Assembly: GCA_963665235.2 (NCBI GenBank)
Contig: CAXXLX010000002.1
Location: 640,001-704,000 of the forward strand
Source of the DNA: Candidatus Poribacteria bacterium
GTDB taxonomy: Bacteria > Poribacteria > WGA-4E > WGA-3G
Length of the DNA stretch: 64,000 nucleotides
Direction: 5' to 3'
Position numbers and translations under genes: made by a program. Shown here in pieces: positions 42,000 to 44,522 of the stretch. Each line of letters opens with the position of its first letter. Within the stretch, counting starts at the first letter, position 1. The notes beneath the pieces are model-generated. The model was not told where the DNA came from and did not search any database. It worked only from the letters and a program-made list of their open reading frames with translations.

Positions 42000-42776
42000 A
42001 TGTTACCTTTTATTCTCAAAACTGTTGGGACACCGGTTCAACGGTTTCACCTTCCTCAGAACGAAAATCACGTCATTGACGTGGAAGTTAGAAATGAATT
42101 TTACACAAGCGATTACAAGGTGCCGTCCCATACCCGGGCAATTTGGCTGCGGAACTTTGTGATGTGGGAGAAGGCAGAGCAGACCGCATATAAAGCCTTT
42201 ACAACGTTTCTCCACCAAGTGTCTGAACCCACCCCGTTTCTCCCTATTGAACGGTTGGAACGGTATCCGTATCGTCGATATGCGTTGCTGCTCTCGGTTG
42301 CCTATTTGTACGAACTGACAGAGGGAACCCTAGATGCACATCGGATAAGAACAGGCCGCTTTGTGCTTGAATATGCCGGATATGAGCTCACTATCCATGC
42401 TAACCGTCATGTATCCGAGGGCTCCGCTTATTTGGTCTCTCCAGCAAAATACGCGCTCTTTGTACGCCGGATGAACGAGGATGGGACGACAACCGCTCGA
42501 TTCTACCGGAGCGAATTTATTAATCTAAACGATAATCTCCTCCCGCCTCTCCATCTAGATGCTGAAGAGGTTATTGCGGCCATCCAGCAGGATATTGCTA
42601 CGCAGGAGAGCGCAATACCCATCGGCCAGCTCCTCCTGTTACCCCCTTCACTTAAGACAGAGACAGATGGAGGACTTACCGAATGCCCGATGTGCAAAGG
42701 CAACGTGAGAAGCATCGGTGAGAATTATTTCTGCTTGCAATGTGATTGGGACAATCTGCCGCCTCTGTTTCCCTAA
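42000..42776 (+). CDS. hypothetical protein with C-terminal zinc ribbon
   Basis: AGGAGG upstream; CPMC...CLQC at the C-terminus. Confidence 0.7.
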   Translation: MLPFILKTVGTPVQRFHLPQNENHVIDVEVRNEFYTSDYKVPSHTRAIWLRNFVMWEKAEQTAYKAFTTFLHQVSEPTPFLPIERLERYPYRRYALLLSVAYLYELTEGTLDAHRIRTGRFVLEYAGYELTIHANRHVSEGSAYLVSPAKYALFVRRMNEDGTTTARFYRSEFINLNDNLLPPLHLDAEEVIAAIQQDIATQESAIPIGQLLLLPPSLKTETDGGLTECPMCKGNVRSIGENYFCLQCDWDNLPPLFP

Positions 42777-43378
42777 ATCGGTGCGAAATGGAAGACTACC
42801 GCCGTATTTGCAGCCGCCAGCAGCGTGCCGACAACGGTTTGGAGAAGTGTATGCCGCTTTCGATAAACCCGCGCCCAGGCAATCAACGGAATCAGCAGAA
42901 AAAGCCACCCCAACTGACTATCGACAAGAAAACCTAAAACCATTATACAGCCTGTCGTGACGCTTGTGTGAAAACTTATTTTCCATAAAGGTGTAATGGC
43001 AGTGAATACAACTGTGTTCACAATATAGGCGATGCATGCCCAAACGATTTCCCGGCTTGCACCAATCTGATGAAGCAGCACCGTCCCCAGAATCAGGCTC
43101 ACAAGCGTGAAGCAGAGAGGAAGTAGCCTATCTTCTTTGGTGTGAAGATGCCAATCGTTTACCTGTGAAAACCGAGACAGCCACAGTATTCCTAGTATCG
43201 GCAGCACCGTTACAAATGCTATCACAACTGCCAACCAGAGTGCCGTTTCCTGATTCGTTTCCGCATGCGCCCGGATAACAAACACAGCGGTCACAATCGG
43301 AACCAAAAACGGACTAAAAATAATAGATGTACCCAACGCAACCCGGGCGGGAAGTGTTGAGAAGGTCCTATGCGTCAT
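42773..43378 (-). CDS. PAP2-like membrane protein
   Basis: Multiple TM helices, WKISFH, WARVYRKRHT...G. Confidence 0.75.
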   Translation of the reverse strand: MTHRTFSTLPARVALGTSIIFSPFLVPIVTAVFVIRAHAETNQETALWLAVVIAFVTVLPILGILWLSRFSQVNDWHLHTKEDRLLPLCFTLVSLILGTVLLHQIGASREIVWACIAYIVNTVVFTAITPLWKISFHTSVTTGCIMVLGFLVDSQLGWLFLLIPLIAWARVYRKRHTLLQTVVGTLLAAANTAVVFHFAPI

Positions 43379-43381
43379 TAA

Positions 43382-44410
43382 TTATTTCGGCGGTTCCAAG
43401 GTTCGGAAGAAATCCACTAAATCCGCCCCGTGGGTGCTGGCATTGACGTTTTTGTCAATCTTCACAATCTTTCCCGTGTTATCAATAATAACGGTGTGCC
43501 GTTTGATTCGACCGTCAGGTTTATCCACAGCCCCGAAAAGCAGGGCGAGGTTCCGTCCGGTGTCAACTAAAAGTGGAAAGTTCAGGCTGTTTTCTTCTGA
43601 AAATTTCTGATGCGACTTTGCATCGTTCGAGGTAATCCCAAAAATTTGAACATCGTGTGCGACAAAATGGCTCGACTCATCCCGGAGTGAGCAAACTTGT
43701 GCCGTTCAGCCGCGTCCAAAATCTCGCGGATAAAATACTAGAGCAACCCTCTTTTTTTCAGGGTTCTTCTCCGCATGGAACTTGCTCAGTTGGTGCGTTT
43801 TTCCGTCGCCATCGATTGCAATAAAATCGGGAGCTGGCTCGCCAACCGCTATCTTCGGAAGCACTTTCTTAAGCATCCGGACGACATCTTCGCCATGTGT
43901 CTTGGTGTTCACTTTTTTATCAATTGCACGGATGTATCCCGCTTTATCAATAATGAAGGTGACCCGTTTTGACGCGTTGAACCGTTCTATAATACCGCTG
44001 TACCGTTTGCTGACCTCAAATTCAGTGTCCGCTAACAGGGAAAAGCCGAACTTATGTTCTGCCCTAAACCGTTTATGTGAATCGACGCTGTCTACGCTTA
44101 CACCGAGTAGCACGGTTCCCGTTTCTTCTATCTCGCTCAATTTTTCCCGGAGCGAGTTGAGTTCAGCTGTTCAGCCACCGGTAAAATCTTTCGGATAAAA
44201 GGCAAGAACGACGTTTTTCTTCCCTAAGAATTCGGTGAGACTCCGTTCTGTGGCGGTCTCATCCTTTAGTTTAAAATCGGGGGCAACCATCCCCACTGTG
44301 AGTTCCTTTACTTTTTCCACATCCTTATTCTCCGCTAACGCTATCGGCACGAAAAGTACTGATATTAACAGCACGATGCCAACACCTTGAATAGATACGT
44401 TTTGAAACAT
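43382..44410 (-). CDS. exported tandem two-domain peroxiredoxin (BCP/PrxQ type) with two selenocysteines (U80, U235)
   Basis: Single frame of 343 codons with in-frame TGA at 44171-44173 (FYPKDFTGG-U-TAELN) and 43706-43708 (FYPRDFGRG-U-TAQVC); Prx similarity continues after each; ends at TAA 43382. Confidence 0.88.
43670..43692 (-). promoter_or_regulatory. candidate bacterial SECIS 2
   Basis: GCTC-ACTC-CGGGAT-GAGT-C-GAGC; loop begins 21 nt after the UGA. Confidence 0.65.
44132..44156 (-). promoter_or_regulatory. candidate bacterial SECIS 1
   Basis: CTCGCTC-CGGGAAAAATT-GAGCGAG; loop begins 21 nt after the UGA. Confidence 0.65.
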
Positions 44411-44522
44411 GTTTCAATTCCTCAAAAAGATAGATTAAATTATGTTGCACGGCACTCTGGGTGTCGTGTCCGGTGGATTATACCGATTTTCCATTACCAT
44501 GTCAATGAAATTTTGAAGAGTG

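Follow-up and report, generated by a model that had tools for sequence, protein, structure and literature searches.

A very probable tandem di-selenocysteine BCP/PrxQ peroxiredoxin gene of Candidatus Poribacteria with a SECIS-like hairpin after each UGA codon

We analyzed a 64,000-nucleotide stretch of DNA of a Candidatus Poribacteria bacterium (GenBank assembly GCA_963665235.2, contig CAXXLX010000002.1, positions 640,001 to 704,000 of the forward strand), hereafter called the window, and in particular a minus-strand frame at 44410–43382. This frame is very probably one real gene for a tandem di-selenocysteine peroxiredoxin of the BCP/PrxQ type with a signal-like N-terminus, in which each UGA has a selenocysteine insertion sequence (SECIS) of its own. 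Translated with TGA as selenocysteine (Sec, U), it is a single frame of 342 codons followed by a TAA stop, interrupted only by two TGA codons, U80 (44173–44171) and U235 (43708–43706). Mechanical listing of open reading frames (ORFs) returned the pieces 44171–44410 (79 residues) and 43706–44140 (144 residues); the last 107 codons were not called because they offer no start codon before 43528. A hidden frame of 342 residues in three segments, with a TGA at the peroxidatic Cys of both BCP/PrxQ domains, had been claimed in a preliminary description of this DNA; the translation bore out the frame, and motifs and alignments bore out the placement of both TGAs. The integrity of the gene, its Sec decoding signals, its conservation, and its domain family were observed directly. 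The parts of the gene are the following:

43382–44410, minus strand: whole gene with two in-frame TGA (Sec) codons, based on translation with TGA as U, two AhpC/TSA domains, and full-length orthologues.
44333–44410, minus strand: signal-peptide-like N-terminus, residues 1–26, ending PIALA/ENK, assigned by a heuristic.
43925–44296, minus strand: domain 1, BCP/PrxQ fold, residues 39–162, with P73, T77, U80, and R149 (Pfam).
44171–44173, minus strand: first TGA, Sec80, at the peroxidatic position of domain 1, based on alignment with a Cys of the homologue P0125; TGA in 98 of 98 distinct sequences.
44132–44156, minus strand: SECIS-like hairpin 1, 7-bp stem CUCGCUC/GAGCGAG and 11-nt loop CGGGAAAAAUU (minimum-free-energy (MFE) fold and RNAalifold).
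43439–43846, minus strand: domain 2, BCP/PrxQ fold, residues 189–324, with P228, G232, U235, C240, and R304 (Pfam Redoxin stretch).
43706–43708, minus strand: second TGA, Sec235, at the peroxidatic position of domain 2, based on translation, alignment with a Cys of P0125, and conservation.
43670–43692, minus strand: SECIS-like hairpin 2, 8-bp stem with one bulged C and 6-nt loop CGGGAU (MFE fold, RNAalifold, and covariation).

Two AhpC/TSA stretches were recognized by Pfam at residues 39–162 and 189–324 (PF00578, 221.8 bits, cut-off 26). The protein also passed the cut-off of the NCBIfam family of BCP thiol peroxidases (NF006960, 169.6 bits, cut-off 140) and missed that of the PrxU family (NF040737, 106 bits, cut-off 270). 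Its closest relatives of solved structure were 3drn, 1xvw, and 3gkk, with E values from 9e-24 to 2e-13, the best being 3drn (Bcp1, 9e-24). Both U80 and U235 align with Cys residues of the tandem homologue P0125, and the Sec site of domain 1 aligns with the active-site position of 3drn, which is Ser in that entry. None of the 98 distinct sequences deviates from the Pro and the Arg (R149 and R304) of either domain; R149 is matched in 3drn by the Arg within RiTFvID, and we take R149 and R304 to be the catalytic Arg of peroxiredoxins.

The two active sites are not alike. Domain 1 reads FYPKDFTGGU-TAELN, with the motif Thr present and no Cys at U+5, and domain 2 reads FYPRDFGRGU-TAQVC, with Gly replacing the Thr and a Cys at U+5. 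Judged from these motifs, domain 1 is of the 1-Sec type and domain 2 of the U-x4-C type in this genome. Such an asymmetry had been described before, and both motifs read as claimed here, but it was not uniform among the 98 orthologues. The Thr of domain 1 (PxxxTxxU) was found in all 98, and position U+5 of the same domain was Cys in 36 and Gln, Asn, Arg, Lys, Ser, or Glu in the other 62 (Asn in the window gene). In domain 2, U+5 was Cys in 96 of 98, and the Thr position was occupied by Gly in the 85 sequences of the window gene's family, nearly always beside an Arg (FGRGU), and by Thr in the 13 sequences of three other families. No further Cys was present in 91 of the 98 sequences. BCPs of the 1-Cys type also exist.

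Conservation of both TGA codons was analyzed in 120 loci, 103 of them distinct, drawn from source sets that overlap in part; these loci are kin and not independent of each other. Full-length matches with two TGAs and 50–77% identity were present in 37 of 41 genomes of the same order; of the remaining four, three contained a single-domain form with one TGA and one, a draft, had no match. TGA stood at both catalytic codons in 117 of 117 tandem loci, and neither TGT nor TGC was found at either site in any of these 117. Thus, the tandem orthologues retained the TGAs throughout, and the expected pairing with Cys was seen in the tandem homologue P0125, as the preliminary description had proposed to check. 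The best 80 related public loci all belonged to Candidatus Poribacteria or to metagenome bins. The third segment lacks a start codon, yet it was no less conserved than the other parts of the gene and had invariant residues over its whole length. One orthologue (L058) had an extra in-frame TAA. Among 12 full-length public proteins examined, 10 had W at both sites, and in the other two domain 1 had W and domain 2 was degenerate; the W at Sec sites therefore reflects TGA=Trp miscalls on short contigs and not Cys forms. Contigs of three metatranscriptome libraries from another study covered most of the gene at 90–99% identity and crossed both TGAs without a codon change (e.g., 43812–44256 and 43369–43843); the lack of such cover elsewhere in the gene (e.g., 44284–44410) carries no meaning.

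A hairpin after each TGA, its loop starting 21 nt downstream, had been claimed from the letters, and both were recovered by MFE folding. Counted from the T of each TGA, hairpin 1 of domain 1 has a stem of 7 bp (nt 18–24/36–42) that closes the 11-nt loop, and hairpin 2 of domain 2 has a stem of 8 bp with one bulge (17–24/31–34+36–39) that closes the loop CGGGAU and takes in two bases of the Cys240 codon (43691–43693). The conserved loop in both is CGKGAU, and RNAalifold yielded both structures unprompted.

The hairpins are supported because relatives show their conservation, not because of thermodynamics. In the domain-2-type set of 86 distinct segments, from which L140 was left out as a misfiled row, 99.6% of 688 cells were paired versus 25–39% when the partner was slid. 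At two pairs the changes were compensatory, with U-A replacing G/A-U in three sequences and replacing C-G in two, and the covariation score was reached by none of 500 shuffles. The domain-1 hairpin of the window gene's family was paired in 96.5% of 455 cells (65 distinct segments), and its pair 18–42 occurred as C-G in 36, G-C in 12, U-G in 3, and A-U in 1, with 13 mismatches. In the other three families, domain 1 did not differ from domain 2 in its hairpin, which had the 6-nt loop (13 segments, 88.5% paired; covariation score reached by 3 of 500 shuffles), so the 11-nt-loop form of the window gene represents a remodelled 3' arm. The covariation test across relatives that had been suggested at the outset thus revealed compensatory changes in both hairpins.

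Codon usage around the TGAs was also analyzed, in 98 distinct tandem genes, with L058 left out by choice and L069 because its motif escaped the pattern used. The codons following TGA were nearly fixed: Ser TCG in 93 of 98 and Leu CTC in 97 of 97, as well as TTG (92/98), AGC (92/95), GAT (98/98), GAG (98/98), and TCG (90/91); elsewhere in the gene the same residues use three to six codons freely. In 87 conserved codon columns with four- or six-fold degeneracy, mean codon entropy was 0.62 in the 17 columns from U-2 to U+13 versus 1.63 in the other 70 (Mann–Whitney p = 7e-9), and the 11 least variable of the 87 columns all lay within the two TGA-flanking windows. An earlier caveat, that part of the common hairpin sequence is forced by shared SLR codons, is answered by this usage: Ser, Leu, and Arg are six-fold degenerate, and yet their codons are nearly fixed. 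As a separate observation, contig depth jumped several-fold exactly over 43669–43750 and 44120–44201, the two motif-plus-hairpin segments, where short high-depth contigs common to many strains pile up, mirroring the nucleotide conservation there.

The model of bacterial SECIS elements (bSECIS), as given in the available part of a 2026 review (PMC13188914), has a loop of 3–9 nt, a stem of 4–16 bp, a G in the first two loop positions, a distance of 16–37 nt from the UGA, and an MFE of -7.5 kcal/mol or lower. Hairpin 2 agreed with the model at every point (loop of 6 nt, 8 bp, spacing of 21 nt); its MFE of -15.1 kcal/mol is that of a segment of 51 nt which also contains an outer helix. Hairpin 1 fitted in its 7 bp, its spacing of 21 nt, the G at the second loop position, and its -10.1 kcal/mol. 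The hairpins of selD and of two UxxC genes of the same genome, with a stem ending at nt 20–24 and a G-initial loop, had the same geometry.

The Sec machinery, whose presence had been named as a check, was complete in the 5.3-Mb assembly to which the window belongs. The gene for tRNA-Sec was found (78.1 bits, cut-off 47), which ARAGORN reported as SeC with anticodon tca, adjoined by selB (357 bits); selA (601 bits) and selD (359 bits) were also present, all three above their curated cut-offs, and selD contained one in-frame TGA of its own. Otherwise TGA is a stop in this genome: it ends 5 of the 30 stop-to-stop frames of at least 250 codons in the window.

Several points weigh against a functional di-selenocysteine enzyme. 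Single-sequence stability of the hairpins was weak (z = -1.42 and -1.47; 18 and 17 of 200 shuffles folded at least as well), and these folding statistics, not being significant, were set aside as support. The 11-nt loop of hairpin 1 is beyond the bSECIS limit of 3–9 nt. A scan of the region with Rfam returned no family and two chance-level matches only. Few stem positions vary, so that the covariation rests on one or two pairs per hairpin in related sequences. Domain 2 lacks the Thr of PxxxTxxC and, judging by this motif, may not be a normal peroxidase. Contigs of RNA libraries may hold DNA, so that transcription is only hinted at. Finally, a product of 234 residues, ending at the second UGA, may be made.

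This last point leads to the best-surviving alternative, in which decoding is efficient at the first UGA but not at the second, an exported single-domain Sec-peroxiredoxin of 234 residues with a tail prevails, the full-length protein appears only under ample selenium, and the second UGA acts as a selenium-sensing switch. Each domain can indeed stand alone, as in the gene L143 and the single forms of domain-2 type described below, and Sec insertion in bacteria competes with release factor 2. We nevertheless consider this reading improbable: domain 2 and its hairpin are constrained at least as strongly (99.6% pairing; GAT, GAG, and CTC fixed in 97–98 of 98), and domain 2 is therefore translated often enough for selection. 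It is harder still to credit that the TGAs are true stops, with the locus being a peroxiredoxin gene that has decayed or been split, or else a set of two to three small genes. The separate pieces of the mechanical ORF list, the long frames of the window that end in TGA, and the extra TAA of L058 would agree with this, but every one of the 117 tandem loci, from four families and down to 50% identity, has both TGAs exactly at the catalytic codons, the startless third segment is as conserved as the other parts, and SECIS-type hairpins and a complete Sec machinery are present. Least credible of all is that TGA stands for an ordinary residue (Trp or Gly, codes 4/25) or is passed by near-cognate read-through. 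Public gene calls of orthologues on short contigs did use TGA=W, but the genome has tRNA-Sec, SelA, SelB, and SelD, the hairpins lie at the SECIS offset, and TGA ends 5 of 30 long frames in the window. Moreover, the gene has TGA at no position other than the catalytic Cys of each domain, and with Trp or Gly there the enzyme would be inactive.

Reading the gene as a tandem di-selenocysteine peroxiredoxin, we propose the following mechanism. A precursor of about 38 kDa would consist of a signal peptide followed by two BCP/PrxQ domains that stem from an old internal duplication. SelB with Sec-tRNA(Sec) would read each UGA as Sec via the SECIS hairpin inside the coding sequence; since the UGAs are 465 nt apart, each needs its own hairpin, and each has one. 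The mature protein in the periplasm or cell envelope would reduce H2O2 or organic hydroperoxides, the selenolate of each domain attacking the peroxide and turning into selenenic acid. In domain 2, Cys240 would then resolve Sec235 to a selenenylsulfide (U-x4-C, the atypical 2-Cys layout of BCP). Domain 1 would follow the 1-Sec scheme, with either domain 2 or a thiol from outside the protein returning it to the reduced state. Electrons would probably cross the membrane via a DsbD homologue and a thioredoxin-fold carrier: a DsbD-like protein of 651 residues, with N-terminal, membrane, and C-terminal CxxC thioredoxin parts, is encoded in the genome, and so an electron route to the envelope exists. 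Both the peroxidase chemistry and the reductant are inferred from established peroxiredoxin chemistry, the motifs, the N-terminus, and the DsbD homologue.

Tentatively, and with the odds against it, domain 2 in the window gene's family could be a built-in resolving or recycling module for domain 1 and not an ordinary peroxidase. The idea arises because domain 2 lost the motif Thr, gained an Arg beside the Sec (FGRGU), and kept the Cys at U+5. In such a relay, the selenenic acid of Sec80 would be passed to Sec235/Cys240 of the same chain as an Se-Se or Se-S bond. If true, the fusion would imitate the inter-subunit relay of typical 2-Cys dimers, with selenium on both sides and outside the cytoplasm.

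Export is suggested by the N-terminus MFQNVSIQGVGIVLLISVLFVPIALA/ENK, whose best 12-residue window had a mean Kyte–Doolittle value of 3.23 and which has an AxA-type site at residue 26. Of 86 distinct orthologue N-termini, 81 had a strongly hydrophobic window, behind which came an AxA-type site and then acidic residues. The signal peptide claimed earlier was judged by hydrophobicity and this AxA heuristic: the hydrophobic window and the site are present, but an uncleaved membrane anchor would also be compatible with them. The protein is thus probably exported to the periplasm or cell envelope, as far as its N-terminal residues tell. The features around the gene are the following:

44477–44505, minus strand: sigma-70-type promoter TTGACA-17 nt-TATAAT, with 12 of 12 consensus matches.
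44418–44423, minus strand: Shine–Dalgarno-like GAGGAA, 7 nt upstream of the start codon ATG (seen in the sequence itself).
42773–43378, minus strand: downstream gene for a polytopic membrane protein of 201 residues (ORF list).

The perfect promoter (44505–44477) is not peculiar to this genome: of 97 distinct upstream regions of orthologues, 52 contained a 12/12 promoter. The membrane protein starts 4 nt after the stop of the peroxiredoxin gene and was kept directly downstream in 103 of 120 loci, all in the window gene's family; the two genes are probably co-transcribed. Its match to PAP2 was below the threshold (16.5 bits, cut-off 27.2), and the NCBIfam search gave nothing useful for it. Convergent with the membrane gene, a plus-strand ORF of 258 residues (42000–42776) has a C-terminal zinc-ribbon-like motif CPMC...CLQC and had no Pfam match.

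Further in-frame TGAs were observed elsewhere in the genome. The gene selD (C1:3841015–3841941, L019) has an in-frame TGA (KCAGU) and, after it, a hairpin whose loop is GGG, which makes selenophosphate synthetase itself a selenoprotein here. At C1:1202195–1208561 (plus strand), five long frames contain an in-frame TGA in the context DE[SA]CUG[ST]G[KR], followed by a small hairpin; these frames account for six matches of a crude screen (two in one frame) and look like a tandem cluster of candidate selenoproteins. In-frame TGAs in VTGMTUGGC or VTGMTUGSC were found at C1:2949018 and 2949508 (plus strand) and 1517333 (minus strand, offset counted from the start of the reverse complement), in contexts resembling the heavy-metal-binding GMTCxxC with Sec for the first Cys, and contig C2 contained an FDH-like RAUHAPT site. 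Two peroxiredoxin-like UxxC genes of the thioredoxin fold (C1:2941117–2941581, minus strand, and C1:3284403–3284876, plus strand; GGUGFC and RFUPFC) have SECIS hairpins at the offset seen in the peroxiredoxin and at least one export-type N-terminus, and are possible envelope redox partners. A genome-wide screen for TGA, hairpin, and redox motif retained 141 of 10,602 candidates, mostly spurious, which is not a selenoprotein count, and a screen by motif likewise gave noise.

Within the phylum set, 154 of 176 genomes had a match at E 1e-30 or better: 107 of 111 genomes of family f1 plus the window's own genome, 11 of 11 of f2, 29 of 29 of f3, and 6 of 7 of f4. None was found in the 17 genomes of seven other families of the phylum, so the gene is a feature of one order of Poribacteria. 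A tree was built from 34 domain sequences, comprising both domains of 14 of the 117 tandem loci, which span the four families, and the variant forms. In it, sequences of domain 1 and domain 2 formed separate clades, both supported at 100/100, which indicates one duplication before the four families diverged. Identity between domains 1 and 2 was 36.6% in the window gene and 47.9% and 44.5% in two other families.

Several variant forms were found. Locus L143 contained a domain-1-only gene with a signal peptide. Genus g8 (L059–L061, L144, L145) had a single-domain Sec-BCP that belongs to the domain-2 clade, lacks a hydrophobic N-terminus, and is probably cytoplasmic; genome G067 encoded two copies of it. 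An origin of the g8 form by recombination between the two motif-plus-SECIS repeats was considered; its N-terminal part is equally like domain 1 (65%) and domain 2 (63%), which speaks neither for nor against such an origin. A second tandem copy, L142 (G102:C108), had a decayed domain 1 (Sec replaced by Ser, FCP...S for FYP...U) and a domain 2 that keeps its Sec; the decayed domain retains an SLRD relic of the hairpin region. The converse case, a decayed domain 2, was seen in the public proteins P0016 and P0019.

A library of representatives at 50% identity contained 11 proteins at E 1e-30 or better, and 13 multi-domain matches were examined. One of the 13 was an exported tandem BCP-BCP protein with Cys at both sites (P0125), several were BCPs fused to a TlpA-like thioredoxin domain, and several had a decayed peroxiredoxin-like domain followed by an active BCP. 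P0127, P0135, P0137, P0147, P0171, and P0174 represent a widespread family of exported BCPs fused to a TlpA-like thioredoxin domain with the conserved tail GC[SAGT]IKR, and this P0127-type fusion looks like a peroxiredoxin with a built-in reductant. P0125, a metagenomic protein of 375 residues, has a signal-like N-terminus and two AhpC/TSA stretches like the Poribacteria protein, with which it is colinear over 331 residues (32% identity), both Sec residues standing opposite Cys. In contrast to the Poribacteria protein, P0125 uses Cys at either site, each time within C-x4-C; its two domains look much more alike, and its duplication is therefore probably independent. Going by these alignments, the tandem architecture of the peroxiredoxin fold is not unique, and the two-Sec form is unique among the forms examined.

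In sequence, the protein belongs to the same BCP/PrxQ family as 3drn (Bcp1 of S. solfataricus), 1xvw (AhpE of M. tuberculosis), and 3gkk (BCP). Domain 2 has the CP-x4-CR spacing of BCP/PrxQ, and domain 1 resembles the 1-Cys layout. The proteins of 3drn, 1xvw, and 3gkk are cytoplasmic single-domain Cys enzymes, unlike the tandem Sec protein of Poribacteria with its signal-like N-terminus.

Sec-peroxiredoxins are a listed selenoprotein family (Prx, PF00578, PxxxTxxU, one Sec) in the accessible text of the 2026 review, which gives PrxU of Eubacterium acidaminophilum as the prototype (PMC13188914). As in that family, outlined there, the fold of the Poribacteria protein is AhpC/TSA, its peroxidatic residues are Sec, and its coding sequence has a SECIS directly 3' of each UGA; it differs in having two domains, two Sec residues, and a signal-like N-terminus (one Sec in the review's table, PMC13188914). 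From PrxU it differs in belonging to the BCP/PrxQ subfamily and in the Gly that replaces the motif Thr of domain 2. The double-Sec bacterial proteins named in the available sections of the same review include MbdU, the HUGP/GUXX-star fusion, and the UxxU proteins (PMC13188914). They too contain more than one Sec per polypeptide, but, as described in those sections, they are not peroxiredoxins and have no tandem repeat of one catalytic domain (PMC13188914). PprX is a peroxiredoxin of the cell envelope reduced via ScsB/TlpA, a DsbD-type electron transporter, according to the accessible portion of its report (PMC3322552). By analogy with what is stated there, the Poribacteria protein would likewise be a peroxiredoxin outside the cytoplasm with a DsbD homologue in the genome; in that same portion PprX is a single-domain Cys enzyme, unlike the Poribacteria protein. 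In the selenoprotein literature, Poribacteria appear with a hydrogenase in the available text of one paper (PMC13582414). The gene was not found in literature on selenoproteins of Poribacteria or sponge symbionts or on tandem, double, or two-domain peroxiredoxins, the last of which, in the portions available, concerns engineered probes; supplementary survey tables could list it. The enzyme type is thus known, and its doubled two-Sec form was not found in the searchable literature.

Bacterial proteins with two separately decoded Sec residues are rare, and exported ones are rarer. The protein combines in one chain two homologous Sec sites that differ in having Thr or Gly nearby and in the presence of a resolving Cys. 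It offers a natural test bed for the benefit that Sec brings to a peroxiredoxin and for the question of which residues of the active site can then be spared. Its two SECIS elements evolved in duplicated coding sequence, one of them remodelled by a 5-nt shift of the 3' arm, under coding constraint. Public annotation splits or mistranslates the gene, and these genomes are therefore credited with too few antioxidant proteins and selenoproteins. The presence of the gene in nearly every genome of the order, together with the consensus promoter, makes it probably a major peroxide defence of the cell envelope; if so, these sponge symbionts would be tied to the supply of selenium.

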